DNA from: an uncultured Acidimicrobiia bacterium
Lineage (GTDB): Bacteria; Actinomycetota; Acidimicrobiia; Acidimicrobiales; AC-14
NCBI GenBank assembly: GCA_963790325.1
Contig: CAWBNY010000004.1
Coordinates: forward strand, 4,210-68,209
Direction of reading: 5' to 3'
Length of the DNA stretch: 64,000 bases
Shown: positions 15,537 to 32,480 of the stretch, piece by piece
How positions within the stretch are numbered: position 1 is the stretch's first letter
Layout: each line of letters starts with the position of its first letter
Position numbers and translations under genes: made by a program
Notes under the pieces: generated by a model
Database searches by the model: none
Seen by the model: the letters and a program-made list of their open reading frames with translations, nothing else
What the model was told of the DNA's origin: nothing

Positions 15537-16882
15537 CCGACTCCGCTCTCTACGCCCACCTGTGGGGGACTGACGAGCTGCGGGCCGTGTTCGACGAACG
15601 CGCTCGGCTCCAGGGATGGCTCGACGTGGTGGCGGCGTTGGCCCGGGCCCAGGCCAAGCTCGGGATCGTCCCCCCCGAGGCGGCCGACGCCATCACCGAG
15701 CTGGCCACGGTCGACCGCCTCGACCTCGACTTCGTGGCCGCCGAGACCCGGCGCACGTCCCACTCCACCCTCGGCCTGATCCACGGCCTGCAGCGGGTGC
15801 TGCCCCCCGAGGCGGCCGGGCACGTGTACGTGGGCACCACCGTCCAGGACGTCACCGACACGTGGACGGTGCTCGCCCTGCGGGAGGTGGGGCGGGTGGC
15901 ATGGCGCGACCTGCGCATCGTCGAGGGCCTCCTCCTCGACCTGGCCGAGCGCCACCGGGACACGGTCATGGTCGGGCGGACCCACGGCCAGCCGGGGTCG
16001 CCGATCACGTTCGGGTACAAAGCCGCCTCGTGGGCGGACGAGGTCCGCCGCCACCTCGACCGGCTGGCCGAGGGCCGGCCCCGGTGGCTGGTCGGCCAGC
16101 TGGGCGGGGCCGTCGGCGTCCTCGGCTACTTCGGGGCCGACGGGCCGGCCCTTCGATCCGCCTTCTGCACCGAGCTCGATCTCGACGATCCGGCGATCTC
16201 GTGGCTGACGGCGAGGGACCGGCTGGCAGAGGCGGCGTCGGTGTTCGCCCTGGTCACGGGCACCTTGGCCCGCATCGGCAACGAGGTCCTCGAACTGCAG
16301 CGGCCCGAGATCGGCGAGCTGGCCGAGCCCACCACGGCCGACGTCGTGGGCAGCATCACCATGCCCCACAAGCGCAACCCGGAGCGCAGCGAGCACCTCG
16401 ACACCCTGGCCCGGCTGGTGCGGGCCAACGCCGCCGTCCTCGTCGAGGGCGTGGCCCAGCTCCACGAGCGGGACGGGCGGGCGTGGAAGGCGGAGTGGGT
16501 GGCGTTCCCCGAGGTGTGCCTGCTCACTGGAGTCGCCCTGCGGACCGCGATCGAGCTGCTCACCGGCCTCGAGGTCGACGGCGAGGCGATGGCCCGCCGG
16601 GTCGGGCAACGGGACGAGGCGGGCTCGGAGCGGGTGCTGGCCGTCCTCACCGCCCGCCTCGGCCGCCACCCGGCCCGGGAAGCGCTCCACCGGGCCCTCC
16701 GACCGGGCTCCGCCGGAACACCGTCTCTGGCCGACGCAGTCGTCGCCGAAGGCCTCCTCACCGCCGACGAGGTCGCCCGCCTGCTCGCCGAGCCGGCCGT
16801 CGAGGGGGCCGTGGCCATGGTCGACGAGGTCGTCCGCCGGGGTCGCGCCGCCCGGGCCGGCGACCCGTCGGCGTGGGCCTGA
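15521..16882 (+). CDS. aspartase/fumarase-superfamily lyase, adenylosuccinate lyase/CMLE-like (XcbC-like candidate)
   Basis: Contains LYAHLWGT, TVQDVTDT and the superfamily signature loop GSITMPHKRNPERSEHL. Confidence 0.85.
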   Translation: MGARLTDSALYAHLWGTDELRAVFDERARLQGWLDVVAALARAQAKLGIVPPEAADAITELATVDRLDLDFVAAETRRTSHSTLGLIHGLQRVLPPEAAGHVYVGTTVQDVTDTWTVLALREVGRVAWRDLRIVEGLLLDLAERHRDTVMVGRTHGQPGSPITFGYKAASWADEVRRHLDRLAEGRPRWLVGQLGGAVGVLGYFGADGPALRSAFCTELDLDDPAISWLTARDRLAEAASVFALVTGTLARIGNEVLELQRPEIGELAEPTTADVVGSITMPHKRNPERSEHLDTLARLVRANAAVLVEGVAQLHERDGRAWKAEWVAFPEVCLLTGVALRTAIELLTGLEVDGEAMARRVGQRDEAGSERVLAVLTARLGRHPAREALHRALRPGSAGTPSLADAVVAEGLLTADEVARLLAEPAVEGAVAMVDEVVRRGRAARAGDPSAWA

Positions 16883-16955
16883 CCCGGTGGTCCATGCGCT
16901 GGCCGTCCGGACCGGTGACACTGCGGGGGTTCACCAGTCCGAACGGAGACCTCCC

Positions 16956-17954
16956 GTGACCGTCAGCCCCGCCCTGGCCACCGCCGCTGCGCTGCCCCGA
17001 CTGCTCCTGGCCAACCTGCCCACGCCCCTCGTGGAGGCGTCGCGGCTGACCCACGCCCTCGGTGGCCCACCCATCCACGTCAAGCGCGACGACCTCGCCG
17101 GCTTCGGCCTGGCCGGCCACAAGGCCCGCCAGCTCGAGTTCCTGGTGGGGGCCGCCCTCGACCAGGGCTGCGACGTGATGGTCACCGGTGGCGGGCCCAG
17201 CTCGAACTTCTGCGCCGCGGCCGCGGCGGCGGCGTCGGCCGCCGGCCTCGACTGCCACCTCGTCCTCTACGGGGCCGAGCCGGAGCAGACCCATCCCAAC
17301 CTGGCCGTGGCCCAGGCGTGCGGAGCGGTCGTGCGCTACACCCGCGACCCGTCGCGGTCGTCGGTCGACGCCCGGGTGGTGGAGGTGGCGGAGGCGCTCA
17401 CCGCCGGCGGGCGGCAGCCCTTCGCCATGCCCCGGGGCGGCGCCACCGCCCTGGGCACGGTGGGGATGGTGCTCGGCGTGGAGGAGCTGGCCGCCCAGCT
17501 GGACGAGGCGGGCATCGAGCCGGCCATGGTGGTCATCGCCACCGGCTCCGGCGCCGCCTGCGCCGGCCTGACCCTGGGGGCGTCGCTGTGCGGGCGGTCG
17601 TGGCGGGTGGTGGGCGCCTCGGTGAGCCGGCCCGGGGAAGAGGTCGTGCAATCGGTGCAGACGCTCGCCGCCGAGTGCGCCGAGCTGCTCGGTGTCGAGA
17701 CCCCGCCCGGGCTCAGCCTGGAGCTGGCCGACGCCCGTGGTCCCGGATTCGGCGTCCCGTCGGCCGACGGCGAGTCGGCCGCCCGGGTGGCGCTGCGCAC
17801 CGAGGGCCTCGTCCTCGACCCGGTGTACACGGCCAAGGCCCTGGCCGTCCTCCTCCGCCTGCTCGACCCGGGGTCGAAGCAGCCGGTAGTTTTCTGGCAC
17901 ACCGGCGGGCTCCTGGGGGCGGCCCACCACCTGGCGGGAGGCGGCGAGGAGTGA
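16956..17954 (+). CDS. PLP-dependent enzyme of the ACC deaminase/D-cysteine desulfhydrase family (XcbE-like candidate)
   Basis: Contains PTPLVEASRL...HVKRDDLAGFGLAGHKARQLEFLV (the PLP-Lys motif) and the glycine loop TGGGPSSNF. I chose the GTG at 16956, which follows GGAGA; the ORF track start is 16887. Confidence 0.85.
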   Translation: MTVSPALATAAALPRLLLANLPTPLVEASRLTHALGGPPIHVKRDDLAGFGLAGHKARQLEFLVGAALDQGCDVMVTGGGPSSNFCAAAAAAASAAGLDCHLVLYGAEPEQTHPNLAVAQACGAVVRYTRDPSRSSVDARVVEVAEALTAGGRQPFAMPRGGATALGTVGMVLGVEELAAQLDEAGIEPAMVVIATGSGAACAGLTLGASLCGRSWRVVGASVSRPGEEVVQSVQTLAAECAELLGVETPPGLSLELADARGPGFGVPSADGESAARVALRTEGLVLDPVYTAKALAVLLRLLDPGSKQPVVFWHTGGLLGAAHHLAGGGEE

Positions 17955-17956
17955 AC

Positions 17957-18013
17957 GGTGGCGGTGGCGGGGTGGTGGTGGTGGTGGTGGTGGCGGTGGC
18001 GGTGGCGGTGGCG
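17957..18013 (+). repeat. (GGT/GGC)n trinucleotide microsatellite, A-free, in the intercistronic spacer
   Basis: The sequence ggtggcggtggcggggtggtggtggtggtggtggtggcggtggcggtggcggtggcggc fills the spacer between the stop at 17954 and the GTG at 18031. Confidence 0.95.
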
Positions 18014-18030
18014 GCCCGGCCCGGGAGCTG

Positions 18031-19464
18031 GTGGAGTCCGGCTTCACCCTGGAGAACGCCGACGCACCCCTCCTGCACCAGGGCCTCAACCTGGCCGACA
18101 TCGCCCACGTCATCGACCTCCGGGGTCGGCGGGTGGTCCCCGAGGACGCCGCCCGCCAGCTCCTCGACCTGCTGCTCGAGGTCCACGGCATGCCGGCCGA
18201 GGAGTTCCCCTACGACCCGTCCTTCGGCGAGGCCTACAACTCCCGGGAGCGGTACTTCGCCTCCCGGCTGGGCGACGTGGCCGGGTGGCTGCACGCCGGG
18301 CGGCCCCGGCGGGAGGCCACCCGCATGGCCCTGCGGCTGCTCCTCCGGCGCCAGCTGGTCGACCTGGTGGAGGACGCGGCCGGCTTCGTCGACAGCGTGG
18401 TCAGTCAGGCGGCGGCCCACCTGGGCACGCTCATGCCCGACCAGACGTACCTCCAGCAGGCCCAGCCGTCGACGTTCGGCCACTACGTCCTGTCCTTCGC
18501 CTACCCGACGGCGCGGGACGCGGCCCGCCTGGTCGACTGCATCGAGTGGGTGAACCTGTCGCCCGGCGGGGCCGGCTGCGTCAACGGGAGCCGGCTGCTG
18601 GAGGACCGGTCGGTGATCGCCGGGCTGCTGGGCTTCGGCGGGGTCATCGAGCACACCCGGGACGCGATGTGGCAGGTGGACGGCCTGATCAACATCCTGG
18701 CCACCACCGCCAGCATGCTGTCCAACCAGTCCAAGCTGGCCGAGGACCTGGAGATCTGGTCGTCGAGCGAGTTCGACTACGTCGACCTCGACGACGGTTT
18801 CACCCGGTCGAGCGTCCTCATGCCGAACAAGCGGAACCCCTACGCCCTGTCGATCGTGCGGGGGGCCTCGGGGATCCTGATCGGGCGGCTGGCGGGGTTC
18901 CTGGCCGTGGTCAAGAGCCCCTCCGCCCGCAGCGACAACCTCATCTTCGCCTACGGCGAGGTCCCCCGGGCCCTCGACCTGGCGTCGCGGACGACCCGCC
19001 TGATGGCCGGGGTGGTGCGCACCCTGCGGGTCAACCGCCAGCACATGGCCGACGCCCTGACGGCCGGCTTCACCCAGGCCACCGACCTGGCCGAGCACAT
19101 CGTCCAGGTGTGCCGCATCGACTACCGCACCGCCTACGTGATCGTGGGGGCGACGGTGCGGGCGGCGGCCGCGGTCGGGTTGCGGGGCGTCGACATCACC
19201 GGCGAGATGCTCGACAACGCGTCCGTCGAGCACCAGGGCCGGCCCCTCGGGCTGGCCGGCCACGACCTCTCGGCGGTGCTCGACCCGATGCGCATCGTGT
19301 CCAGCCGCTCGGCCACCGGCGGGGCCGCGCCCGAGGCGGTGGGGGGGATGGTGGCCACCTGCCGGGAGTCGGCGTCGTCGCTGCACGCCGAGGCCGACCG
19401 CTGGCGGGACTCGTTCGACTGCGCCGAGGCGGCGCTGCTCAAGCTGGCGGAGGAGACGGCGTGA
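18031..19464 (+). CDS. aspartase/fumarase-superfamily lyase, argininosuccinate lyase-like (XcbD-like candidate)
   Basis: Contains TYLQQAQPSTFGHY and the signature loop SSVLMPNKRNPYALS. No in-frame start exists between the stop at 17887 and 18028/18031. Confidence 0.85.
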   Translation: MESGFTLENADAPLLHQGLNLADIAHVIDLRGRRVVPEDAARQLLDLLLEVHGMPAEEFPYDPSFGEAYNSRERYFASRLGDVAGWLHAGRPRREATRMALRLLLRRQLVDLVEDAAGFVDSVVSQAAAHLGTLMPDQTYLQQAQPSTFGHYVLSFAYPTARDAARLVDCIEWVNLSPGGAGCVNGSRLLEDRSVIAGLLGFGGVIEHTRDAMWQVDGLINILATTASMLSNQSKLAEDLEIWSSSEFDYVDLDDGFTRSSVLMPNKRNPYALSIVRGASGILIGRLAGFLAVVKSPSARSDNLIFAYGEVPRALDLASRTTRLMAGVVRTLRVNRQHMADALTAGFTQATDLAEHIVQVCRIDYRTAYVIVGATVRAAAAVGLRGVDITGEMLDNASVEHQGRPLGLAGHDLSAVLDPMRIVSSRSATGGAAPEAVGGMVATCRESASSLHAEADRWRDSFDCAEAALLKLAEETA

Positions 19465-20849
19465 CCCGGGTGGAGCTGCCGACCGAGGTGTCGGTGGTCA
19501 ACCTGGGGCTGGCGCTGTTCGCCGATGCCATCCGGGACCAGGGCCGGCCCGTCCTCCATGTCGACTGGCGCATCCCGGCCGGAGGCGACCTGGCGCTGGT
19601 GGCGGCGCTGACCCGGCTGTACGGGCGGCACGGGGCGGCGGTCGACGCGGCCAATGCCGAGGTCGTGCGCCGGCTGGACACCGGGGTGCCGCGGCTGGTC
19701 GGGATCGCGCCGGCCGGCGACGTGGTGCCGGGGATGGGCGAGCGCACCATCCTCCACTGCGGGCCGGCCATCGGGTGGGACGACATGGGCGAGCCGCTGC
19801 GCAACTCGGTGCGGGCGGCGGTGCGGGCCGAGGGGTGGGACCCGGCGGGCGGCGACGACGAGGTCGACCTGGAGCCGGCCAACCACCACTCGGCGGTCGT
19901 GCCCATGGCCACCGCCATGGGGCCGTCGACGCCCGTGTTCGTGGTCGAGATGGAGGGCCTCCGCTCGTTCTCGCCCATCAACCAAGGCCCGGGCGAGGTG
20001 GCCTGGTTCGGGCGGGACACCCCGGCCGCCGTCGACCGGCTCGTCTTCCTGCGGGACGTGGCCGGCCCCCTGCTGGCCTCGGTGGTGGCGGCGGCCGGCC
20101 CGCTGGATCTGATGGCGGTGGCGGCCCAGGGCCTGCAGATGGGCGACGACCTGCACATGCGCACCCAGGCCGCCACCAACCTCCTGCTGCGGACCTGGCT
20201 CCCCCACCTCATGGGCCTGGAGCCGGCCGCCCGGTCCGAGCTCGGGGGCTTCCTCGCCGGGAACCACCTGTTCTTCCTGAACCTGGCCATGGCCGGGGCC
20301 AAGGCGCTGACCCTGTGGGCCGAGCAGGTGCCGGGCGCCAGCGTGGTCACCACCATGGCCCGCAACGGGACCGCCTACGGCGTCCGGCTGCCGGGGTCGC
20401 CGGAGTGGTTCGTGACCGGCTCGCCGCCGGTCGGCGACGCCTTGTTCCACCCCGGCCGGTCGGCCGACGACGCCGCCCCCGACATCGGCGACTCGGCGGT
20501 GCTGGAGCTGATCGGGCTGGGCGGGTGCGCGGCGGCGGGCTCGCCGGCGGTGGCGGCCTTCGTGGGGGGAACGATGGCCGACGCGGTCGCGACCACGGAG
20601 GACATGGACCGGGTGTGCGCCGGGCGGAGCAGCCGGTTCAGGCTGCCCATCCTCGACTTCCGGGGCACGCCGGTGGGCGTCGACGTGCGCAAGGTGGTCG
20701 AGCTCGGCATCACGCCCAAGGTCACCACCGGCATCCTCCACGCCGGTGACGGGGGCCAGATCGGCGCCGGGGTGGCGCACGGCCCGATCGCCTGCTTCCG
20801 CGACGCCCTCCTCGATCTCGACCGCCGCCTCGATCGCCGCCTCGGGTGA
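19461..20849 (+). CDS. DUF1116-family protein (YlbE-like)
   Basis: The GTGA overlap with the upstream stop couples the two genes. The length and the motifs HHSAVVPMA, GDDLHMRTQAAT and MARNGT...DSAV.E..GLGG resemble the YlbE/DUF1116 family. This call is from memory of the family and was not searched. Confidence 0.7.
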   Translation: MTRVELPTEVSVVNLGLALFADAIRDQGRPVLHVDWRIPAGGDLALVAALTRLYGRHGAAVDAANAEVVRRLDTGVPRLVGIAPAGDVVPGMGERTILHCGPAIGWDDMGEPLRNSVRAAVRAEGWDPAGGDDEVDLEPANHHSAVVPMATAMGPSTPVFVVEMEGLRSFSPINQGPGEVAWFGRDTPAAVDRLVFLRDVAGPLLASVVAAAGPLDLMAVAAQGLQMGDDLHMRTQAATNLLLRTWLPHLMGLEPAARSELGGFLAGNHLFFLNLAMAGAKALTLWAEQVPGASVVTTMARNGTAYGVRLPGSPEWFVTGSPPVGDALFHPGRSADDAAPDIGDSAVLELIGLGGCAAAGSPAVAAFVGGTMADAVATTEDMDRVCAGRSSRFRLPILDFRGTPVGVDVRKVVELGITPKVTTGILHAGDGGQIGAGVAHGPIACFRDALLDLDRRLDRRLG

Positions 20850-21631
20850 CCGTCGAAGTCGGCGCCGGTGCCCACCGGACGCTGGCGGTCGACGGGCGGG
20901 GGCAGGTGGTGGGCGTCTACCGCCACGCCGCCCATCTCCGCCTGCCGGCAGGGATGGTGGCGGTGGTCACGCCCCAGGTGGGGCGGGGCCCGCTCCACGT
21001 GCGCGGCCCGGTGCGGCCCGAGCTCCTCGCCCCCGGCGACCGGGTCGACGTGGTGGGCGGCGCTTCGCTGCGCGTGGCGACGGCGGTTGAGGTCGACCTG
21101 GCCGCGGCCCGGGTGTGGCGGGGGGCGCTGCCCGAGCCATCGACGTTGGCCGGTGCCGACTTGAACGTCTTCGCCGCCGCCCCTCCGTCGGCGTTGGTCG
21201 ACCCGGTCCACGCCGACCGGCTGGCGGTGGCCGTCCACCGCCTCGACCACGACGACCTGGCGGGTGCGGCCCGGGCCATCGGCGGGCTGGGTCCGGGTCT
21301 GACCCCGTCGGGCGACGACGTCCTGGCCGGGATCCTTCTCGTCCGGCGGGCGCTCCGGGGACCGGCGGCGGAGTCGGGGTTGGTCGCCGTCGCCCGCGCC
21401 GTGCGGACCACCTCGTTGTCGCGGGAGGTCCTGGTGTGGGCCGCCCGGGGCCAGGCGGTGGAGCCCGTCCACGACCTCCTGGGCTCGGTGGCGGCCGGCG
21501 ACCGGGCCGCCGCCGACACCGCCCTGGCGCACGTGGTCGCCCTCGGCCACTCGTCCGGTGCCGACCTCGCCCTCGGCCTCGCCCTCGGACTGGGACTGCG
21601 TCTCGGGGTTGCCCGAACGGGGTACCGGTGA
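20846..21631 (+). CDS. DUF2877-family protein (YlbF-like)
   Basis: It overlaps the upstream stop (GTGA). GLGPGLTPSGDDVLAGILL and the C-terminal ALGHSSGADL are characteristic DUF2877 motifs. Confidence 0.7.
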   Translation: MTVEVGAGAHRTLAVDGRGQVVGVYRHAAHLRLPAGMVAVVTPQVGRGPLHVRGPVRPELLAPGDRVDVVGGASLRVATAVEVDLAAARVWRGALPEPSTLAGADLNVFAAAPPSALVDPVHADRLAVAVHRLDHDDLAGAARAIGGLGPGLTPSGDDVLAGILLVRRALRGPAAESGLVAVARAVRTTSLSREVLVWAARGQAVEPVHDLLGSVAAGDRAAADTALAHVVALGHSSGADLALGLALGLGLRLGVARTGYR

Positions 21632-22198: not shown

Positions 22199-24832
22199 TC
22201 AGACGTCGTTGCGGCCGATGCAGACGAAGGCGGCGGCCGCCGCCCGGTCCTGACCGTCGCCGGCGCCGGCCAGGGCGAGGGCCGGGCGCTCCCCCGCCCG
22301 CAGCCGCCGGTGGAGGGCGACCATGACCGCGGTGGTGGCCACGTCGGGCACCGGCAGGAGGGGGGCGATCACGGCCCGGACGCCGAGCGATAGGAGGGCG
22401 GCGGCCGTGCCCAGGAGGTCGTCACCCTCGTGGACGGCGGCCACCGCCGCGTCGCAGGCCGAGAGCACCACCACCGACGGCGCCCGGCGGAGCCGCTCGA
22501 GGTCGTAGACGGTGAGCGGACCGTCGTGGAGGAGCACCGACGAGAAGAGGGGGCTGTCGGCCCGAAACGTCCCGTGGGCGGCCAGGTGGGCCAGATCGGC
22601 CTTCTCCAGCGCGGCCACGACACCGGCGACGGTCGCCCGCTCGCCGGTGAGCACGGTCGCCCTCGGGTAGAGGGCAGCCAGTTGACCGACCTCGGTCTCG
22701 GCCCCGGGCAGCCGGGGCCCCGCCACCAGCGCCACCCGCCGCCGCCCCCGGGAAGGCGCCGGCCGGGCCGGCCCGGCCGTCCCCGCCAGCCACACCGCGG
22801 CACTGGGAGCGACGGTGGTCGGGCGCCCCGCCAGGGTCGGCAGGGTCGACCACGGCAAACCGTGCAACTCGCCCGTGGGGACCACCACCACCGGCTGCCC
22901 GTTCGGCACGCCCAACGGAGCCAGCAAGAGCTCGTCGAGGCGGGCCGCGGTCGACGCCAGGGCCGACTCCGCCACCGCCCGCGATCCGGGCCAGAGCAGG
23001 CGCCGAAGGGCGAACATGAGGTACTGCCGCTCCCGCTCGACCTCCACCGCCGGGGCCAGGTCGTGGACCTTCACCCCTGCCCGGCGGACGGTGACGGCGT
23101 GCAGCCGCCCCTGCACCGACACGAACTCGACGAGGACGCGGTCACCCAACGCCCGCCGCAACGAGGCGACGTCGAGCCGGCCGGTGTCCGCCGCCCCGTC
23201 GTCACTCGCCCGCCGGGTGCGGTCCCGCACCCTCTCCTCCACCGCCGCCGCCTGCAGCGTCAGCGTCGGGGTCGGCCCGCCGTTGAGGGCGGCGTCCCGC
23301 AGCTCGGTCCGGATGCGGCGGAGCTGGGCCAGGTCGGCGGCCAGCTCGCCGTCGTCGGGCGGCCGCGCCGGCGGTCGCCGCAGCGCGCCCGCCCGCCCCC
23401 GCTCGACCCAGCGCAGGACCTCGGCCGGCCGCCCGCCGTCGAGGGCCAGGCGGACGCCGAGACGGGCCAGGTCGGCCGAGTGACCGGCCGCCCGGGCCCG
23501 CAGCTCCGACCCGCCGAGGGTCGCCCGGTACTCGTCGACGACGGTGATACCCCGGCCCAGGGCCCGCTTGGCGCCGGCTCGGTCGCCCTCGGCCAGGCGC
23601 AGCAGGGCGGTGGCGTGCCACGCCTGAGCCCGGCAGTCGGCGGATCCCACGGTGCGGGCGGACGCCGACTGGCCCAGCTCGGTGCGGGCGACGGCCGGCC
23701 GGCCCAGGGCCAGCGCCATCCGACCCACGAACGTGCGCACGTGGAGCGCCTCCACCGCCCACCCCTGGGACTCGAGCTCGGCCGCGATCCGCCGGCTGCG
23801 GCGGAGCAGGCCCGGTGGCGGAACCTCCTGGTCCTGGTGGGCCAGGACCGCGGCCTGGATCTCGACATACCGGGCCTGGGCCGACCACGGGAGGCGGCGG
23901 GCGGCCCGGAACTGGCGGGCGGCGAGGGCCGCCTCCGCCGCCGCCTGATCGTAGGCCCCCGCGGCCAGGAGGGACCGGGCCAGCAGGAGCCGGCACTCGT
24001 TGAGGTGGGTGAGGTCGCCCCGGGCCAGGGCGGCCACCGCCGACGCGGCTGCGGCCCGGGCCTCGCCCACCAGGCCTGCGGCCAGCAACACCTCGCTGCG
24101 GTCGGCGTCGAGCACCGCCACCAGCCGGTCCGGGTTGTCGAGGTCCTGGTAGGCCCGCTGGGCCCGGTCGAAGGCAGCCAGCGCCTCCGGCAACCTTCCC
24201 TGCCGGCAGTAGGCGAAGCCGGTGTTGTGGGCGGCCATGGCCACGATCATCGGGAGGTCCCGCTCCAAAGCGATCCGCTCCCCTTCGGCGAAGTCGGCGA
24301 GGGCGGCGTCGAGGTGGCCCTGGGCGCCGTGGAGGATGCCCCGGCACACCCGCAGCCGGGCGATCGACGCCTTGCTGCCCGTGCGGGCCAGGGAGCGGAG
24401 GGATCGTCCGTAGGCGGGCAGGGCCTGGTCGAGGTGGCCCGTCCAGTGGAGGACGACGCCGCCGAGGAGCTCCACCTCACCCCGCACCGACGTCGGAGCC
24501 ATCTCCCGGGCCCGCCCGATCTCCCGGGTGCTACCGGCGACGTCACCCACGCTGAGCAGGGAGATCGCCATGCTGGCCCGAGCCATCGCCTCCCGGTCGG
24601 GGAGGTTGTGCGCGACGCTGGTGGCCACGGCCGCCCGGTAGCGGCCGAGCGCCTCCCGGTGACGACCGAGCTCGTGGAGGGCCAGCCCGACGACCCACGA
24701 CGCGGCCGCGGAGACGCTCGGGGCGTCGGCGCCCTCGACCAGCTCGGTGGCCCGAGCCAGGACCGCAGCCGGGTCGCGATGGCGGCGATCGGCCAGCTCG
24801 GCCAGCTCGTCGAGGACCGCCCGCGACCCCAC
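22199..24832 (-). CDS. TPR-repeat protein with C-terminal CHAT (caspase-like) protease domain
   Basis: About 600 aa of TPR-like helical repeats precede a CHAT dyad context: DLAHLAAHGTF (His) and VVVLSACDAA (Cys). There is no signal peptide. Confidence 0.85.
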   Translation of the reverse strand: MGSRAVLDELAELADRRHRDPAAVLARATELVEGADAPSVSAAASWVVGLALHELGRHREALGRYRAAVATSVAHNLPDREAMARASMAISLLSVGDVAGSTREIGRAREMAPTSVRGEVELLGGVVLHWTGHLDQALPAYGRSLRSLARTGSKASIARLRVCRGILHGAQGHLDAALADFAEGERIALERDLPMIVAMAAHNTGFAYCRQGRLPEALAAFDRAQRAYQDLDNPDRLVAVLDADRSEVLLAAGLVGEARAAAASAVAALARGDLTHLNECRLLLARSLLAAGAYDQAAAEAALAARQFRAARRLPWSAQARYVEIQAAVLAHQDQEVPPPGLLRRSRRIAAELESQGWAVEALHVRTFVGRMALALGRPAVARTELGQSASARTVGSADCRAQAWHATALLRLAEGDRAGAKRALGRGITVVDEYRATLGGSELRARAAGHSADLARLGVRLALDGGRPAEVLRWVERGRAGALRRPPARPPDDGELAADLAQLRRIRTELRDAALNGGPTPTLTLQAAAVEERVRDRTRRASDDGAADTGRLDVASLRRALGDRVLVEFVSVQGRLHAVTVRRAGVKVHDLAPAVEVERERQYLMFALRRLLWPGSRAVAESALASTAARLDELLLAPLGVPNGQPVVVVPTGELHGLPWSTLPTLAGRPTTVAPSAAVWLAGTAGPARPAPSRGRRRVALVAGPRLPGAETEVGQLAALYPRATVLTGERATVAGVVAALEKADLAHLAAHGTFRADSPLFSSVLLHDGPLTVYDLERLRRAPSVVVLSACDAAVAAVHEGDDLLGTAAALLSLGVRAVIAPLLPVPDVATTAVMVALHRRLRAGERPALALAGAGDGQDRAAAAAFVCIGRNDV

Positions 24833-24881
24833 GGCTCGGAATGGTAGAGAGTCGTGTGTATCTCAGCGGCCCCTGCCGACT

Positions 24882-24895
24882 GTGAACGGTGAACG
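24882..24895 (+). promoter_or_regulatory. tandem GTGAACG GTGAACG in the CHAT/S8 divergent intergenic region
   Basis: A perfect 7-bp tandem repeat lies just upstream of the GAGGGAGG Shine-Dalgarno sequence of the S8 gene. Confidence 0.2.
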
Positions 24896-24908
24896 AGGGA
24901 GGCGGACA

Positions 24909-26438
24909 GTGACCGAGGGCGCAGCCGGACCGAGCGGCACCGGCAACGGCGACGACAGGGACGACGGCAACGACAAGGGCCACGGCGACGGCGACGGCGA
25001 CGGCGGCTACGGCGGCGAACCGGTCGTCGGCGACGGCCGGGAACGGCCCCGGGGACGATGGACGAACCGGGTGGGCTTCGCCGCCTGGCCCGGTGGCACT
25101 GTCTTCGCCTACCGGCCGGGCGAGATCCTCACCCTGCGGGGGGAGGATGCGCTGGCCACCACCCGGGAGCGAAACAACGACGTCCGGGTGCTCCAGGAGC
25201 TGGGCCAGTTCACCCGTCTCGGCGGCATCGCCGACGTCCTGGCCGAGGTCGGCGAGCTCCGCCGGCGGGGCATCCTCGCCCAACCCAACCACGTGTTCTT
25301 CGCCCACGACGGTGTCGGACCGACACCCGTGTTCCCGACACCCGTGTTCCCGACACCCGTGTTCCCGACCGGCGCCAACTGGGGCTGCAGGTGCTGCTCG
25401 CCGGGACCGTCGTGCCCGCCCCACCCCTCGAAGTCGTGCGCATGCGGTGGCGTTTTCCCCACCCCCGTCTTCCCCACCCCCGTCTTCCCCACCCCCGTGT
25501 TCCCGACGCCGGTGTTCCCGACGCCGGTGTTCCCGACGCCGGTGTTCCCCACCGAGATGAAGAGCACCGCCCGGGCGGTGCCGCCCGCCACCGACGTGTC
25601 CACCGCCACCGCCGCGCTGGCCGCGCCCATCCCCTCCGACGGGCCCCTCGTCATCGTGCTCGACACCGGCCTGGCCGCCGACGGACCGTACTTCCCGGCC
25701 GCCCTCACCTCGGCACCCGTGGCCGGCGCCACCTCCGCCGACCACGACGAGCCCGACGAGGACGGCGACGGCGGCCTCGATCCGTGTGCCGGCCACGGCA
25801 CGTTCATCGCCGGCGTCGTCGGCCAGGTCGCCCCCGGCTGCGAGGTCGTGATCCACCGGGTTTTCTCCACCTTCGCCGACTCGTCGGAGGCCGAGATCGT
25901 GGACGCCATCGCCAACCTCGACCCGGCCCGGCCCGATCGCACCATCCTCAACCTGTCCTTCGGCGGCTACACCCTCGACCTCCCTGTCGCCATGGCCATG
26001 GCCATCGCCGCCATCCAGGCCACGGGCGTCGTCGTGGTGGCATCGGCCGGAAACGACGCCACCTGCGTTCCCACCTACCCCGCCGCCTTCCCGGGCGTGG
26101 TCGCCGTGGGCGCGGTGGGCCCCACCGGCCCCGCCCCGTTCACCAACTACGGGCCGTGGGTCAGGGCGTGCGCGCCCGGCGTCGACATCGTGAGCACGTT
26201 CTTCCAGGGCTTCAACGGTTCCGAGCCGGTGCCGCCGGGTGGCGGCGGCGACCCCGACGATTTCTCCGGCTGGGCCCGGTGGAGCGGCACGTCGTTCTCC
26301 GCCCCCGTGGTCGCCGGCGCCCTGGCCCGGAGGATCCTGACCGACGGCTGCACCGCCGAGGAGGCGGTGTCGAGGGTGGTCGACGCCCCCGCCCTCATGC
26401 GGATCCCCAACCTGGGCACGGTGGTGAACGTCATCTGA
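24909..26438 (+). CDS. cytoplasmic subtilisin-like serine protease (S8) with I9-like propeptide and repeat/Cys-rich linker
   Basis: The catalytic residues are present: VIVLDTGLA (Asp), GHGTFIAG (His), ASAGND (Asn) and SGTSFSAP (Ser). I chose the GTG at 24909, which follows GAGGGAGG. The N-terminus is acidic with no hydrophobic signal. Confidence 0.85.
   Translation: MTEGAAGPSGTGNGDDRDDGNDKGHGDGDGDGGYGGEPVVGDGRERPRGRWTNRVGFAAWPGGTVFAYRPGEILTLRGEDALATTRERNNDVRVLQELGQFTRLGGIADVLAEVGELRRRGILAQPNHVFFAHDGVGPTPVFPTPVFPTPVFPTGANWGCRCCSPGPSCPPHPSKSCACGGVFPTPVFPTPVFPTPVFPTPVFPTPVFPTPVFPTEMKSTARAVPPATDVSTATAALAAPIPSDGPLVIVLDTGLAADGPYFPAALTSAPVAGATSADHDEPDEDGDGGLDPCAGHGTFIAGVVGQVAPGCEVVIHRVFSTFADSSEAEIVDAIANLDPARPDRTILNLSFGGYTLDLPVAMAMAIAAIQATGVVVVASAGNDATCVPTYPAAFPGVVAVGAVGPTGPAPFTNYGPWVRACAPGVDIVSTFFQGFNGSEPVPPGGGGDPDDFSGWARWSGTSFSAPVVAGALARRILTDGCTAEEAVSRVVDAPALMRIPNLGTVVNVI
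25320..25370 (+). repeat. 3 x 15-bp tandem repeat encoding PTPVF
   Basis: The unit ccgacacccgtgttc occurs three times, followed by a partial unit, in frame within the S8 CDS. Confidence 0.95.
25452..25553 (+). repeat. 6 x 15-bp tandem repeat encoding PTPVF (three nucleotide variants)
   Basis: The units are cccacccccgtcttc x2, cccacccccgtgttc x1 and ccgacgccggtgttc x3. All encode PTPVF. Confidence 0.95.
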
Positions 26439-26457
26439 ACGGTCCCGGGCCGGGAGC

Positions 26458-26481
26458 GGAACGCTCCTACGATGGCGCCGT
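26458..26481 (+). promoter_or_regulatory. ECF-type promoter-like motif GGAAC-N16-CGT
   Basis: GGAAC is at 26458-26462 and CGT at 26479-26481. The CGT overlaps the GTG that I assigned as the sigma factor start. Confidence 0.25.
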
Positions 26482-27076
26482 GTCGACATCCCGGGAGGAC
26501 TCGGTCGCCGACCTGGTGCTGGCGGCCAGGGCCGGCGACGCCGCCGCCTGGGACGCCCTCGTCGACCGCTTCGCCGGCCGGATCATGGCCGTCACCCGGT
26601 CCTTCCGCCTCGGGCGGGCCGACGCCGACGACGTCTTCCAGGTCACCTGGCTGCGCCTGGTCGCCAACCTCGAGAGCATCCGGGAACCCGATCGGGTCGG
26701 CGCCTGGCTGGTGACCACCGCGTCCCACGAGTGCCTGCGGCTGCTGCGCAAGGCCGGCCACCAGGCCCCGGGCGACGACGGCTGGGAGGACGGCCTGGTC
26801 GACGACGCGGCCGAGGTCGACGCGGGCGTGCTCACCACCGAGCGCGACCACGCCCTGTGGGCGGCGATGGGGATGCTTTCCGCCGCCTGCCAGCGACTCC
26901 TGCGGTTGCTGGCGGCCGACCCCGCCCCCACCTACGAAGAGGTCTCGGCGGCCCTGTCCATGCCGATCGGCAGCATCGGCCCCACCCGCCGCCGGTGCCT
27001 CGACCACCTCCGAACCCATTTCTCGCGTATCACCGGGACGCCCCAAGGCTCATCTGAGTTGGGGGAGATGCCATGA
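26480..27076 (+). CDS. ECF-family RNA polymerase sigma factor
   Basis: Region 2 shows AGDAAAWDALVDRF...DADDVFQVTWLRL, and the region 4 HTH shows YEEVSAALSMPIGSIGPTRRRCLDHLR. An alternative start is the GTG at 26516. Confidence 0.85.
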   Translation: MSTSREDSVADLVLAARAGDAAAWDALVDRFAGRIMAVTRSFRLGRADADDVFQVTWLRLVANLESIREPDRVGAWLVTTASHECLRLLRKAGHQAPGDDGWEDGLVDDAAEVDAGVLTTERDHALWAAMGMLSAACQRLLRLLAADPAPTYEEVSAALSMPIGSIGPTRRRCLDHLRTHFSRITGTPQGSSELGEMP

Positions 27077-27558
27077 CTGATCACGAAGACCGAGACGACC
27101 GAGACGACGACCTCCTGGAGGAGCTGCGAGCGATGCTGGGCCGCGTCGATCCGGTCCCGGTGGAGATGGTCGCCGCCGCCCGCGCCACCTTCATCTGGCA
27201 CACGATCGACGCCGAGCTGGCCCAGCTCACCTGCGATTCGGTCCTCGACACCGATCGCATGGCCGGCGTCCGCGGCGGGAGCACGGCGGTCGGGCCCCAG
27301 CTGCTCACCTTTTCGGCCGAAGGCCTGACGGTGGAGATCGAGGCCACCACCGGGCCGGGCGGGCTGCGCCTGCTCGGCCAGCTGGTCCCGCCCCAGCCGG
27401 GCCAGGTCGAGGTCTGCCACCCGGGGGGCACCACCACCGTCGACGTCGACGCCCTGGGCCGCTTCGCGGCCGACGGTCTGGCCCCGGGCCCGGTGAGCCT
27501 GCGCTGCCGCCCCGCGCAGGGCGGCCCCGCCGTCGGCACCGACTGGTTTCTCGCCTAG
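27073..27558 (+). CDS. sigma-coupled soluble protein (putative anti-sigma/partner), no TM segment and no zinc-finger motif
   Basis: It overlaps the sigma gene stop (ATGA). It has an acidic N-terminus (DHEDRDDRDDD) and a predicted beta-rich C-terminal half. No HxxxCxxC motif is present. Confidence 0.6.
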   Translation: MTDHEDRDDRDDDLLEELRAMLGRVDPVPVEMVAAARATFIWHTIDAELAQLTCDSVLDTDRMAGVRGGSTAVGPQLLTFSAEGLTVEIEATTGPGGLRLLGQLVPPQPGQVEVCHPGGTTTVDVDALGRFAADGLAPGPVSLRCRPAQGGPAVGTDWFLA

Positions 27559-27615
27559 GACGTATCAGGGAGCCCCGTCGGCGGCTCTCAGTGGTGAGCG
27601 ACCGAGGGAGGCGAG

Positions 27616-27831
27616 ATGGACTCGATCACGCAGAGCGACACCTGCTACCTGCTGCTGACCGGCGGGCGGGGCTCACCCCAGAGCCTGATGTTCCGGACCG
27701 AGGAGCAGGCGCAGGCCGAGTTCCGCAGGATCAGCCGGGCCCCCCGGGCGGGGACCCAGTGGATGGAGCTGTCGATGGTGGTCGGCGGCGGCCGCCTCCA
27801 CCGGCTGGCCTCCTACGCCCGACCCTCGTAG
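27616..27831 (+). CDS. small hypothetical protein (71 aa)
   Basis: The ATG is preceded by GAGGGAGGCGAG. No family was recognised. Confidence 0.5.
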   Translation: MDSITQSDTCYLLLTGGRGSPQSLMFRTEEQAQAEFRRISRAPRAGTQWMELSMVVGGGRLHRLASYARPS

Positions 27832-27919
27832 ATCCCCCCGCGGGGCCAGCGGCGAGCAGGGCGCCGGTCAACGGCGACAGGCGCCCCGCCCGTCCATCCG
27901 GGCTAGTCTCCGACGCCCG

Positions 27920-28807
27920 ATGGACCAACGGCTCGTGACACCCCAGATCCGCACCCTCTTCTGGGGCGTGGGCTGCGCCTTCTCCGGCCTGGCGGGACTG
28001 GTGCTGTTCCTCTTCCCGGAGAAGACCGACACCCTCTTCGCCTGGACGATCGCCCGGGGCGACACCGCCGCCTTCCTCGGTGCCTGCTTCCTCGGGATCA
28101 GCCTTCTCTCGTTCCTCTGCTACGGCATCACCGAGTGGCGGGGGGTCCGGTTCTGCTTCCTGGGGACGCTGGCCTTCGTCACCGCCATGACGGTGGCCAC
28201 CCTCCTCCACCTCGACCAGTTCCACTTCGGCAGCGACGAGCCCATCGCCCTGGTCACGGCCTTCGGGTGGACCATCGTCTACCTGGCCGCGCCGGTGGCC
28301 GGTTGGCTGCTGCTGTCCCGCCAGCTGCGGGAGCCGGGGTCCGACCACCGCCCGGCGACCCCCATCGTCCCCGGCCTGCGCTATCTCTACCTGGCCCAGG
28401 GCGGGCTGCTGGTGGCGGTCGGGGTCGTGCTGTTCGTGTCCCCCGGGTCGGCCGACAGCGTGTGGCCATGGCCCCTCACCCCGTTGACCGCCCGGGCGGT
28501 GGGGTCGTTCCTCATCGGATTCGGGATCATGCTCGTCGGCGTCGGTCGGGAGGACGCGACCGAGATCCTGGAGCCACCCGGCGCCGCCTGCTGGTGGACG
28601 GCGCTGCTGTCGGGGATGGCCGCCACCCGGTTCCAGGGGACTGTCGACGTCGGCTCCATCCGAGGTCTGCTGTGGTGCCTGGTGGTCGTGAGCCTCCTCC
28701 TCGGGGGCGTCGCCGGCGAGCTGGCCGCCCGCCGCCTGCGGGCCGGCCCCCGTCCACCCGGCGCACCCCGCCCGCCCCGTCCCCCACGACGACCGATCGA
28801 GGGCTAG
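27920..28807 (+). CDS. polytopic membrane protein with internal duplication and Pro/Arg-rich tail
   Basis: There are about 8 hydrophobic segments. The halves begin FPEKTDTLFAWTIARGDTAAFLG and SPGSADSVWPWPLTPLTARAVGSFLIG. Confidence 0.7.
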   Translation: MDQRLVTPQIRTLFWGVGCAFSGLAGLVLFLFPEKTDTLFAWTIARGDTAAFLGACFLGISLLSFLCYGITEWRGVRFCFLGTLAFVTAMTVATLLHLDQFHFGSDEPIALVTAFGWTIVYLAAPVAGWLLLSRQLREPGSDHRPATPIVPGLRYLYLAQGGLLVAVGVVLFVSPGSADSVWPWPLTPLTARAVGSFLIGFGIMLVGVGREDATEILEPPGAACWWTALLSGMAATRFQGTVDVGSIRGLLWCLVVVSLLLGGVAGELAARRLRAGPRPPGAPRPPRPPRRPIEG

Positions 28808-30422: not shown

Positions 30423-30654
30423 CTTCGGTCGCCGGGGCCACAGGATCTGTCACCAGTTCGGGGTCGGGCCAGCCGGCGATGGTGGCGATCAGCTCCTGGC
30501 GGAAGTCCTCCCAGTCGAACGCGCCGGCGGCGTGCAACGCCAGCGCCAGTCCGAACGCCCGGCTCTCCCAGGGCTCGGCGAAGACCAGCTCCCCGTTGCT
30601 CCGGGGGGGCGAGGCGGGGCCGTAGACGTCGAGGACGCCGACGGTCGCGCTCAC
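30244..30654 (-). CDS. nitrile hydratase accessory (activator) protein, beta-subunit-homologue type
   Basis: It overlaps the alpha subunit stop (GTGA). [18 protein letters not shown]... is the beta-like N-terminal motif. The C-terminal tail is His-rich (HDHGDHSHG). Confidence 0.8.
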
Positions 30655-31253
30655 GAGGGCGACGGCACCCGGGCCACGCCCACCATGGCGTCGCGGGTGA
30701 CGAGGGCGGCCAACTCGTCCTCGGCCAGGCCGTCGGTGCCGGCAGGGCGCTCGGGGAGCACCATGTAGCGCACCTCCGACGACGAGTCCCACACCTGGAT
30801 GTCGACGCCGGCGGGCACGTCGAGGCCCATCTCGGCCAGCAGGGTGCGGGGCTCGCGCACCATCCGCGACCGGTAGGCGGGGTCCTTGTACCAGGCCGGC
30901 GGCAGTCCGAGAACCGGCCACGGGTAGCAGGAGCACAGGGTGCACACCACCACGTGGTGGGTGCCGGGCGTCTGCTCCAGAACCACGATGTGCTCGCCCT
31001 GGGGGCCCTTGAAGCCCATCTCGGCGATGGAGCCGGTGCCGTCGGCCAGCAGGCGGGCCTTGTACTCGGGGTCGGACCAGGCGTGGGCCACGACCCTGGC
31101 CCCGTTCATGGGGCCGACGTTCTCCTCGTAGTTCTTGATGAACCCGTCCATCACCTTGGGGTCGACCAGGCCCCGCTCGACCAGGATCGACTCCAGGGCC
31201 TCGGTGCGCAGGGCGATGGGCAGGCGCTCGGCGTCGGTGTCGCTCACGCTCAT
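30651..31253 (-). CDS. nthA: nitrile hydratase alpha subunit, cobalt type
   Basis: The metal-binding motif is [15 protein letters not shown]. The Thr and Tyr variants indicate the Co type. The ATG at 31253 overlaps the beta subunit stop (ATGA). Confidence 0.92.
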
Positions 31254-31918
31254 GACGGGGCAGCCTCCAGGTAGGACTCGTACAGGTCGATGGTGACGGT
31301 GAACGGCTCGGCACCGTCGCCCCACAGCTCGGCCGAGTCAAAGACGACCGCGTACACGTGCTGGGGGTTCTCGCCCAGGAAGTGGGCGTTGGTCTCGGGC
31401 AGCACCATGGCCGGCTGGACCAGGCGGACCTCGCCCGTCCGGCCCCGCACGTACCGGGGCAGGCGGGTGTGGCCGGAGGGGTGGATGTCCTTCGCCCGCA
31501 CCCGGTCACCGGGTTCGAAGGCGGGCGGGGTTTCGACCGGGCGGATGGAGCCGGCGGCGGTGGGCTTGTAGTCGGGCTTGTTGGGCTCGGGGACGGGCGG
31601 CTCCTCCACGTCCTCCCCCCGCAGCTTCCTGGCCCGGGCGTCGACCGCCCCCGGGGCGATGATCGAGCTGTCGGTGAGCAGGTTCTCGGCCATCTTCAGC
31701 CACCGGCCGTAGTACCCGAAGGCGAGGTAGTCGATGGGGTGCTGGCGGTTGAGGGCGTGGCGGAACGAGTCGAGGTTGGTGCCCGACACCCGCATCGAGA
31801 GCAGGGCCATGGCGAAGGCCCGCCGCTCCCAGTCCTCGTGGAAGGGCGGGTCGTCGGGCGGCGTCAGCCGCACCGACCCGAAACCCTGCAGGCCGCCCAT
31901 GTCGGCGACGGTGTCCAA
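31250..31918 (-). CDS. nthB: nitrile hydratase beta subunit
   Basis: Contains GGLQGFG..., [22 protein letters not shown] and ENPQHVY.V.F. The TTG at 31918 is preceded by GGAGG plus a 6-nt spacer. Confidence 0.9.
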
Positions 31919-31991
31919 GGTTGACCTCCTCCTCGAAGGCGGAGCGCCGCGCCCGGCCGGCGGTGCCGGGCGCGGCTGCTCCAGGACTGGC

Positions 31992-32480
31992 TCAGACGGT
32001 CCAGGTGTTGATCTGGAAGGCACCCGCCCGCCAGGCGGTGAGGGCCGAGTCGAGCACGTCGAGGGGGTGGAACGGGGTGACGCCGTCGATGAGGTCGTCC
32101 TCCCGGAACCCGTAGAGGGCGCCCATGGCGAAGCGGCAGGCGTACACCTTGGCTCCCTCCCGCAGAAGGGTCTTGATCTGGTTGTTGATGGCCATGTGGC
32201 CGGGAAAGGCCTCCTGGCCGACGGCGGGGAAGCCCCGGGTGCCGGAGGCGAGGAGCACGCCCGGGCCGTAGAGGACGATGCTCACGTCGAAGCCCTTGCG
32301 CACCAGCCGGGTCGACGTCAACAGGTTCACCAGGGCCACCGACCCCTCGTAGGGGACGGTGTGGATGAAGACGAAGGCCTTCTCCCCCGGGTTGGCCTTG
32401 ATGTCCTCGAACAGCTTCTCGTCGGTGTTGAACAGGACCTCGCCGTCGGCGGGCCGCTCATTGTTGACGGTCTTCGGCAT
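31992..32480 (-). CDS. DsrE/DsrF-like small protein (assignment tentative)
   Basis: The protein is 162 aa with a strong Shine-Dalgarno sequence (GAGGAGAG). The pattern FVFIHTVPYEG...VLYGPGV...KVYACRFAMG suggests the DsrE-like fold. This is a low-certainty call made by eye. Confidence 0.55.
   Translation of the reverse strand: MPKTVNNERPADGEVLFNTDEKLFEDIKANPGEKAFVFIHTVPYEGSVALVNLLTSTRLVRKGFDVSIVLYGPGVLLASGTRGFPAVGQEAFPGHMAINNQIKTLLREGAKVYACRFAMGALYGFREDDLIDGVTPFHPLDVLDSALTAWRAGAFQINTWTV

Follow-up and report, generated by a model that had tools for sequence, protein, structure and literature searches.

We analysed a 64,000-nucleotide stretch of DNA, called the window throughout, from an uncultured Acidimicrobiia bacterium (GenBank assembly GCA_963790325.1, contig CAWBNY010000004.1, positions 4,210 to 68,209 of the forward strand), focusing on a gene for an S8 (subtilisin-family) pro-enzyme in which tandem PTPVF pentapeptides and a cysteine-rich block lie between a prodomain-like N-terminal domain and the catalytic domain. 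These blocks proved to be one version of a junction module that defines a family of pro-subtilases predicted to be cytoplasmic. Every copy of the repeated peptide is under strong purifying selection for one sequence, with the unit and the copy number varying by lineage, and the repeat-bearing zymogen is obligatorily linked to the gene of a sensor containing tetratricopeptide repeats (TPRs). The junction linker probably controls the timing of protease switch-on; as to the means, we tentatively picture the array as a tether with multiple docking sites, to be read by the TPR array of the partner protein, and the autoprocessing site as gated by metal binding. A protease inside the cell has to be kept inactive until it is called on by a signal, and the latches known for such enzymes are folded prodomains, short plugs and recruitment domains. 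Here, a different element occupies the decisive position: a disordered, strongly selected pentapeptide array with a Cys/His motif, paired with a TPR sensor.

The S8 gene and its parts occupy the following positions in the window:

24909..26438, forward strand: S8 (subtilisin-family) pro-enzyme, 509 residues, referred to as P0001 (Pfam Peptidase_S8, E = 8e-24)
25026..25307, forward strand: prodomain-like N-terminal domain, residues 40-133, modelled with a beta-alpha-beta-beta-alpha-beta fold whose last strand is ILAQPNHVFFAH
25320..25370, forward strand: repeat block A, three PTPVF units followed by PT, encoded by three identical 15-mers CCGACACCCGTGTTC (25320-25364) and then a partial CCGACC
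25371..25451, forward strand: Cys/His block GANWGCRCCSPGPSCPPHPSKSCACGG, with six Cys and one His; window copy of the family motif C-x-CC-PPHP-x3-C and a putative metal-binding knuckle
25452..25553, forward strand: repeat block B, VF followed by six PTPVF units and PT, encoded by three synonymous 15-mer types
25554..25583, forward strand: EMKSTARAVP, the window version of a conserved (R)RSSARP motif
25566..26438, forward strand: catalytic subtilase domain, with Asp252 at 25662-25664, His296 at 25794-25796 and Ser462 at 26292-26294

Across the junction the S8 frame reads ...AQPNHVFFAH-DGVG-(PTPVF)x3-PT-GANWGCRCCSPGPSCPPHPSKSCACGG-VF-(PTPVF)x6-PT-EMKSTARAVP..., which places the segment between the end of the N-terminal domain (PNHVFFAH, ending at residue 133) and the catalytic Asp252 (25662-25664). 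An earlier note on this DNA had counted three plus six PTPVF copies, built from four synonymous 15-mers, around a six-Cys block, and this description was reproduced base for base. The six units of block B (25458-25547) comprise two copies of CCCACCCCCGTCTTC, one of CCCACCCCCGTGTTC and three of CCGACGCCGGTGTTC, with a partial GTTTTC before them and CCCACC after. Tandem Repeats Finder recovered both arrays at a period of 15, with 3.3 copies at 100% match for block A and 6.9 copies at 92% for block B, and the PTPVF unit occurs nowhere else in the window. All differences among the four 15-mers are synonymous changes at third codon positions. The four unit types vary at four sites, so that at least five substitutions are needed to relate them; since 13 of the 45 possible single-base changes per unit are synonymous, five of five being synonymous would occur by chance with a probability of about 0.002 (our own arithmetic), which argues that the array is old and selected. 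It is nevertheless still turning over, slippage included: adjacent identical units occur in runs of 3, 2 and 3, a signature of recent local duplication. The same gene carries a second, imperfect tandem repeat (24941-25037, forward strand; period 6/9/18, unit GGCGAC) whose product, DDRDDGNDKGHGDGDGDGG, is an acidic tract rich in Gly and Asp within the protein's disordered N-terminus, and low-complexity N-termini resembling this tract occur in some relatives (P0047, P0072, P0083).

The selection seen in the window recurs throughout the family. In 53 arrays, differences between units gave a proportion of synonymous differences (pS) of 0.46 and of nonsynonymous differences (pN) of 0.021, a ratio of 0.046; within block B of the window, pS was 0.585 and pN 0. 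The earlier statement that the repeats are kept at the peptide level is borne out by these figures. Individual loci illustrate the pattern: locus L002 encodes 13 PVYPS copies by 11 distinct 15-mers, with Ser specified by both TCN and AGC codons, L003 encodes 10 NPASI copies by 7 distinct 15-mers and L004 encodes 14 PVYGS copies by 8, and the 11 copies in L001 are identical, apparently a recent expansion. Gene conversion was rejected as the cause of the identical-peptide copies, because it would have made synonymous sites uniform as well. Whatever the mechanism behind it, near-saturated synonymous divergence combined with identical peptides makes this a clean case of selection acting on a repeat.

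Both the unit and the number of units change rapidly at the level of whole arrays. PVYAS, PVYAT or PIYAS fill entire arrays in enzymes that are about 92% identical in the catalytic domain, and among pairs of enzymes at least 88% identical the copy number differs by at least one unit in 31/57 (for example, 10 versus 3), spanning 3 to 14 copies. The claim that the repeats are not a recent slippage product therefore holds as far as age and selection on the peptide are concerned, and has to be given up for the arrays' present composition, in view of the runs of identical units and of these copy-number differences. A constraint that is uniform across copies, differs by lineage and switches the whole array at once, together with variable copy number, points to a specific, co-evolving reader that tolerates variable valency.

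The extent of the family was determined at three depths: a database search gave 1470 relatives at E <=1e-10, an exhaustive search of cluster representatives gave 388 clusters at 50% identity and E <=1e-30, and a scan of one genome per GTDB species gave 554 matched stretches encoding a relative. Taxonomy, taken from the best 80 of the 554 stretches, was mostly Acidimicrobiia, with Solirubrobacterales, other Actinomycetota and three Chloroflexota MAGs (metagenome-assembled genomes; L036, L044, L048) also represented; the full-length relatives (272 distinct sequences) come from Acidimicrobiia, Thermoleophilia, Actinomycetes and some Chloroflexota. A tandem array lies at the junction in 252/272 of these, with a period of five in 229. 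The consensus pentapeptide of the period-five arrays is [S/T/N]-P-[V/A/F/L/M]-[Y/F/H]-[A/G], in which position 1 is Ser, Asn or Thr, position 2 is Pro in 229/229, position 3 is Val, Ala, Phe, Leu or Met, position 4 is Tyr in 155/229 and otherwise mostly Phe, His or Arg, and position 5 is Ala or Gly; in this register the window unit reads T-P-V-F-P. Arrays hold about 2 to 18 copies (median 7). Variant arrays have 6-residue units, or two or three blocks parted by Cys clusters (P0073, P0078, P0079).

Nearly every full-length member shows the same order, from PNHVFFAH through C-x-CC-PPHP-x3-C, the tandem pentapeptides and (R)RSSARP to the catalytic domain, with (R)RSSARP conserved about 33 residues N-terminal of the catalytic Asp. 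The Cys/His motif, typically C-x(1-3)-CC-[PG][PG]-HP-x3-C, was present in 152/226 relatives and usually starts right after PNHVFFAH; in 39/272 relatives the array occurs without any Cys. What the earlier note took for a six-Cys insert is thus indeed present, as a copy of a conserved family motif and not as an insertion specific to this protein, and a lineage-specific insert is ruled out by the family-wide occurrence of both the repeats and the Cys block. What is lineage-specific is solely the presence of a first repeat block that makes the array bracket the Cys block: P0002, the closest relative at 61% identity, has the identical PVFPT unit and likewise a first block ahead of its Cys motif, whereas the canonical motif directly follows PNHVFFAH, so the arrangement is a sub-lineage rearrangement of the canonical order. 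In one sub-clade (P0039, P0046, P0047, P0057, P0072, P0081) a 10-residue unit, QSVHPTP[FY]G[AG], replaces the pentapeptide; interleaved with these units are (GC)n clusters, at most three per linker and exemplified by GGCGCGCGCGCGG, and the linker has 10-13 Cys. In these linkers the metal-binding side of the module seems to have been greatly enlarged.

Repeats can mis-assemble, and a few long-read MAG copies do show frame breaks or masked bases (L015, L039, L046, L084). That the module is an assembly or annotation artefact, or chance low complexity, is still a practically negligible possibility: the window arrays span just 51 and 102 bp, are in frame and vary purely synonymously, and hundreds of independent assemblies from several sources show the same architecture. 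In the affected MAG assemblies, the frame is broken upstream of or in the array, or bases are masked (in the S8 open reading frames (ORFs) of L015, L046 and L084, and in the array of L039), and the translations turn into an Arg/Pro-rich out-of-frame product or contain masked bases. The catalytic domain of L046 is 98% identical to that of P0077, yet L046 has 4 in-frame copies and P0077 has 9. Either such arrays readily attract assembly or frameshift errors, or the four copies are pseudogenes.

The protein that carries the module has the makings of a zymogen. Its ORF spans 24747-26438, with a likely GTG start at 24909 preceded by the ribosome-binding site GAGGGAGG, and the GC content at third codon positions (GC3) is 0.91. 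Membership in family S8 follows from a match to Pfam PF00082 over residues 244-474 (84.9 bits, cutoff 21.8), and the triad is intact: D252, H296 and S462, in D-T/S-G, H-G-T and G-T-S motifs, are invariant in 60 homologues, as is the oxyanion Asn382. The enzyme is not a type VII secretion mycosin, since it stayed below the threshold of NCBIfam TIGR03921 (69 bits against a cutoff of 279), and no second S8 paralogue was found within the window. A hydrophobicity scan detected no signal peptide or transmembrane segment in P0001, its sole hydrophobic maximum lying within the catalytic core, and the enzyme is predicted to be cytoplasmic.

An AlphaFold model of P0001, built with the 60-sequence alignment, had a mean predicted local distance difference test (pLDDT) score of 81.9 and a predicted template modelling (pTM) score of 0.83. 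The N-terminal domain was modelled with pLDDT 74-98 (strands E56-59, E65-76, E93-98, E101-105 and E124-132; helices H78-86 and H110-119), residues 135-215 as disordered (pLDDT 56-66 over the Cys block and <50 over the repeats), and confident order resumed at about residue 220, with the catalytic domain. In Foldseek, the best full-length match of the model, aligned over 475-485 columns, was unautoprocessed pro-subtilisin E carrying IS1 (3whi); PCSK9 and fervidolysin, both zymogens made of a prodomain and a catalytic domain, were also aligned. Sequence searches were negative: Pfam, queried with five N-domains and admitting E values as high as 10, returned no match to I9 (PF05922), and profile searching of the PDB with the N-domain gave chance matches only (E about 1). 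In the model the N-domain thus shows kinship to the subtilisin prodomain (I9) by fold only, presumably packed on the catalytic domain with its C-terminal strand toward the active site. The earlier placing of the segment at the junction of prodomain and catalytic domain in an S8 zymogen with an intact triad is supported by these results, and its label "I9-like" fits the fold (AlphaFold, Foldseek) and not the sequence (Pfam, PDB profile search).

Alignment by position suggests where the zymogen may process itself. PNHVFFAH appears to match EEDHVAHAY, with which the subtilisin propeptide ends, and SSARP would correspond to the mature N-terminus AQSVP, as judged from the sequence of subtilisin BPN'. 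Because both align in this way, the autoprocessing site is predicted to lie after His133, so that in canonical members the first Cys would be the P1' residue (FAH/C, the slash marking the cut).

A loop at such a site need not have a reader. The segment might be a passive, proline-stiffened and protease-resistant spacer without a specific reader, which, like IS1 of Tk-subtilisin, would give the prodomain tail access to the active site with the mature N-terminus still docked, and the IS1-inserted pro-subtilisin E as top full-length structural match, the modelled disorder, the freedom of copy number to vary among close relatives and the periodic Pro typical of linkers are all in keeping with this. 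A spacer should, however, tolerate conservative substitutions, and instead we see identical peptides at near-saturated synonymous divergence (pN/pS 0.046), arrays that switch unit as a whole and a consensus that is specific at all five positions. We therefore regard a mere spacer as unlikely.

We are equally doubtful about a role as a pseudosubstrate plug, in which uncuttable units, present in many tethered copies, would sit in the S8 cleft; the protease would stay auto-inhibited as long as the linker is neither removed nor pulled out. X-Pro bonds are not cleaved by subtilisins, and the window sequence V-F-P-T, like the V-Y-P-S of PVYPS-type arrays, forms a hydrophobic-aromatic-Pro motif with an X-Pro bond across the unit boundary. 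Such a motif has a precedent in the LIPY/F element of intracellular subtilisin proteases (ISPs), [LVI]-[IFLV]-P-[YFH], which keeps its X-Pro bond out of reach of the catalytic Ser (PMC6220982). The need of a cytoplasmic protein for tight latency and the selection on every position of the unit would also suit a plug. On the other hand, most units (SPVYA, TPVYA, NPLYG) have Ala or Gly, not Pro, after the aromatic residue, units without any aromatic exist (NPASI, NPAVG), the folded prodomain already serves as a classical inhibitor, and AlphaFold docked no unit in the cleft. The cleft motifs LSFGG and SAGND, moreover, are near-invariant although the units vary from SPVYA to NPASI and QSVHPTPFGA, so that the cleft of the protease itself is unlikely to be the reader with which they co-evolve.

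A better candidate for the reader lies in the neighbouring genes, which in the window are as follows:

22199..24832, reverse strand: TPR-CHAT protein, 877 residues, divergent from the S8 gene (Pfam CHAT, E = 7e-36, residues 628-857; TPR_12, TPR_2, TPR_MalT)
26480..27076, forward strand: ECF sigma factor, 198 residues, beginning 41 nt past the S8 stop codon (Pfam Sigma70_r2, E = 4e-13; NCBIfam TIGR02937)
27073..27558, forward strand: small protein, 161 residues, whose ATG overlaps the sigma stop codon; helical acidic N-terminus and beta-rich C-terminus
27920..28807, forward strand: multi-pass membrane protein, 295 residues, with 46 hydrophobic windows and no Pfam match

The TPR-CHAT protein belongs to the caspase-like proteases; its TPR array is N-terminal, and both candidate catalytic motifs, AAHG and LSAC, are present. 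In a survey of 84 loci, searched with the window proteins and with all neighbouring ORFs clustered, two types of partner emerged. In 36 loci a TPR-CHAT gene stands head-to-head with the S8 gene, accompanied by the sigma factor and small protein where the flanks allow; under the same proviso, an ECF sigma factor adjoins the CHAT gene in 24/36. In 40 loci (L025, L029, L030, L034-L039, L043, L048, L054-L067, L071-L078 and L084 being STAND-type; for example L054, 3410-5950) the gene directly upstream, which has the same orientation and whose stop codon often overlaps the S8 start codon, encodes a cyclase-STAND-TPR protein of about 870 residues, in which an adenylate/guanylate-cyclase-like domain at the N-terminus and a STAND/NB-ARC-type NTPase are followed by TPRs at the C-terminus; these loci contain neither sigma factor nor CHAT gene. 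The contig ends less than 1.5 kb upstream in the remaining 8/84, so that a TPR protein lies directly upstream in 76/76 informative loci. Subtilases with the Cys motif, the array and RRSSARP are found alongside either type of partner, and the TPR array is the sole element that the two partners have in common (hhalign probability 84.5% over 188 columns, a generic TPR similarity).

This distribution bears on two roles that the earlier note had proposed. One is that CHAT cuts the repeats or the K/R-S-S/T-A-R motif and thereby releases active S8. In favour of it are the 36 head-to-head pairs of CHAT and S8 genes, the precedent of CHAT-initiated signalling in type III CRISPR accessory modules and the accessibility of a disordered linker as substrate. 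As a general role it fails on the 40 loci with a cyclase-STAND-TPR partner, which has no CHAT or other protease domain and stands next to the identical module, RRSSARP included; besides, a cut alone would leave the non-covalently bound prodomain in place. We consider a CHAT-cleaved tether improbable. The other role, an excised Cys-rich peptide, found no support, and the wider idea of a precursor from which the protease excises pentapeptides or a Cys-rich piece as signalling products, or as products akin to ribosomally synthesized and post-translationally modified peptides (RiPPs), is very improbable. Tandem identical cores do resemble cyanobactin and fungal repeat precursors, and multi-core precursors processed by subtilisin-like enzymes offer a parallel; the match of the enzyme to the PatA/PatG family is weak (NCBIfam, 34 bits against a cutoff of 421) and reflects the shared S8 fold only. 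Against such a role, no modifying enzyme, transporter, exporter or immunity gene is conserved near the pair, whose flanks differ between loci, so that the locus does not qualify as a RiPP locus. There is also no signal peptide, the window bond after Phe is Phe-Pro and hence uncleavable by subtilisins, and a search of the neighbouring ORFs for the repeat unit, as a substrate mimic or an amyloid-like signalling motif, found it in 0/63 loci.

The remaining genes of the window locus vary more in their occurrence. The window and L001-L004 contain the full set of sigma factor, small protein, subtilase and CHAT protein, but the order varies and the flanking genes are unrelated. Homologues of the small protein follow the sigma gene in 16 loci, with a weak CarboxypepD_reg match in L001; its N-terminus is conserved as DD..LL..L...DPVP....A, and its C-terminus ends in TPWITR or TDWFLA. 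The protein is a candidate for a partner of the sigma factor or an anti-sigma factor, and could also be a protease inhibitor by analogy with IPI, the Ig-fold inhibitor of Bacillus ISP (PMC3901451). The membrane protein has homologues at 63-66% identity in just two loci, L003 and L009, where they follow the sigma and small genes although the gene order relative to S8 differs, and in this sub-lineage the protein is possibly part of the sigma operon or regulon. A scan of 24600-28000 for sigma-70-type promoters found nothing. PADLOC recognised no known anti-phage defence system: its sole matches were a generic one to subtilases (1e-13) and a weak one to BovA on the CHAT domain (4e-9), with none for the sigma factor, small protein or STAND partner. 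Further out, the window encodes metabolic enzymes unrelated to the module: a Lyase_1 enzyme, a PLP-dependent enzyme, and a 963-residue AllG-like and an AllH-like protein (oxamate carbamoyltransferase subunits) at 15194-21631 on the forward strand, and nitrile hydratase alpha and beta subunits at 30651-32023 on the reverse strand.

Taken together, the array in 252/272 relatives, the TPR partner in all informative loci, the zymogen fold with a disordered linker and the ECF54-type context of the window locus count in favour of docking to a reader plus a gate. In our tentative scheme, the array would act as a string of identical short linear motifs bound by a lineage-specific reader, so that the latent protease would be docked or clustered on its sensor. 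The likeliest reader is the TPR solenoid of the neighbouring partner, TPR-CHAT in the window and cyclase-STAND-TPR in other loci. With a tether of this length and flexibility, the prodomain tail could remain in the active site and SSARP, the mature N-terminus, be docked at the same time. The Cys/His knuckle, which normally begins at P1' of the predicted site, probably binds metal and might thereby gate cleavage or release of the prodomain; the metal or redox role raised in the earlier note is plausible. In the window locus, the signal may then be relayed by the CHAT and S8 proteases and reach the co-transcribed ECF sigma factor together with the small protein that partners it.

Several observations weigh against this scheme. 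AlphaFold left the array unplaced, the resemblance between the TPRs of the two partner types is of the generic kind, and the order of events from CHAT to S8 to sigma factor is taken from gene neighbourhood alone. The gate can be neither essential nor strictly positional, since 39/272 relatives have no Cys at all and the Cys block of the window lies about 25 residues from the junction. In an exploratory comparison controlling for the other domains, covariation between unit distance and TPR distance gave a partial r of -0.15 for CHAT partners (n = 14) and +0.34 for STAND partners (n = 18), opposite signs in the two classes obtained from small samples that are not phylogenetically independent.

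Clustering of the zymogens could in principle also arise from the array itself, with aromatics every five residues driving self-association or condensation and hence trans-activation by proximity. The repeats have the composition of stickers and spacers and a variable valency: Tyr at position 4 in 155/229 arrays, then Phe, His and Arg, between small or polar residues at positions 1 (Ser, Asn or Thr) and 5 (Ala or Gly). Such a mechanism would leave the exact identity of the peptides and the obligate TPR partner unexplained, and aromatic-free units exist (NPASI, NPATI, NPAVG); we find it hardly credible as the main role.

Docking on the TPR partner can be taken one step further, as a possibility that we advance with still greater reserve than docking itself: the array might be an adaptor code, in which identical motifs recruit the latent subtilase to the TPR solenoid of an NLR-like or caspase-like sensor, the choice of unit insulates parallel systems from one another, the copy number sets avidity and the Cys/His knuckle is a second input. 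If so, this would be a bacterial counterpart of zymogen recruitment by death folds, achieved by a disordered repeat and not by a folded domain. Should the array be the sensor's handle on the zymogen, it would explain how ECF54-type sigma factors are controlled without an anti-sigma factor, would reveal a new mode of recruitment in bacterial systems of the NLR-like and caspase-like kinds and would offer synthetic biology a simple, tunable pair of peptide and TPR. The module is of relevance to protease latency, the regulation of ECF sigma factors and bacterial NLR-like or caspase-like signalling.

Compared with known systems, the enzyme is closest to the pro-subtilisins (subtilisin E/BPN', and Tk-subtilisin with IS1; 3whi), with which it shares the prodomain fold, a C-terminal prodomain strand preceding the catalytic domain, and the triad. 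It differs from them in the 80-170 extra residues at the junction, made up of the Cys/His motif and the pentapeptide array, in having no I9 sequence match, in its cytoplasmic location and in its genetic tie to a TPR sensor. Modules accessory to type III CRISPR systems (Csx29, a TPR-CHAT protein, with Csx30/Csx31/RpoE, and SAVED-CHAT cascades) are said to carry CHAT-initiated proteolytic signalling to ECF sigma factors. They likewise combine TPR-CHAT, an ECF sigma factor and small partner proteins, with a proteolytic relay as the proposed logic; in contrast to them, the present loci contain no CRISPR genes and add an S8 zymogen.

The ECF54-type neighbourhood reportedly goes back to Huang et al. 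2015 and Casas-Pastor et al. 2021. The window and the other CHAT-type loci fit it, and the same four genes are found in the window and in L001-L004, an assignment made by gene context, as the sigma factor itself matches only the generic TIGR02937; unlike that neighbourhood, the present subtilase family also pairs with cyclase-STAND-TPR proteins where there is no sigma factor. In the accessible parts of its published descriptions, the ECF54 context comprises the sigma factor, a carboxypeptidase-regulatory-like protein, a subtilase and a CHAT protein without an anti-sigma factor, and proteolytic regulation is proposed (PMC8999054; see also PMC7826278); those parts make no mention of a repeat array or Cys motif in the subtilase. 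ISPs with a LIPY/F propeptide (PMC6220982) are likewise cytoplasmic S8 enzymes with an N-terminal motif of Pro and an aromatic residue, and the window V-F-P fits [LVI]-[IFLV]-P. They differ in having a single motif in an 18-residue extension and no folded prodomain, whereas here 2-18 copies follow a folded prodomain and most units fall outside the ISP pattern.

Two classes of repeat proteins are alike in periodicity or composition. Classical pentapeptide-repeat proteins (PF00805, A[D/N]LXX, forming the Rfr beta-helix) share the period of five, and here too position 1, preceded by Ala, is often Asn, Ser or Thr. Such a beta-helix was rejected for our arrays, which have no Pfam match, carry a central Pro in 229/229 instead of Leu/Phe and are modelled as disordered; the window unit even has two Pro per five residues. 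Eukaryotic Pro/Tyr repeats (plant PPVYK proline-rich proteins, extensins, the C-terminal domain of RNA polymerase II, NPxY) have Ser/Asn-Pro-x-Tyr head-to-tail and offer an analogy for scaffolding or docking, but the bacterial proteins are cytoplasmic and the likeness is compositional, not homologous. Precomputed Pfam matches to Extensin_1 exist in many relatives; they are weak and compositional, and with no signal peptide a true extensin was rejected. The literature searched, whose coverage is incomplete, yielded no account of the repeat array or the pattern of selection on it, of the CCPPHP motif or of the cyclase-STAND-TPR pairing, nor of the repeat strings themselves. Set against these systems, the enzyme is a member of family S8 that works like a prodomain-latched zymogen, and its junction module looks like an undescribed variant of that design.

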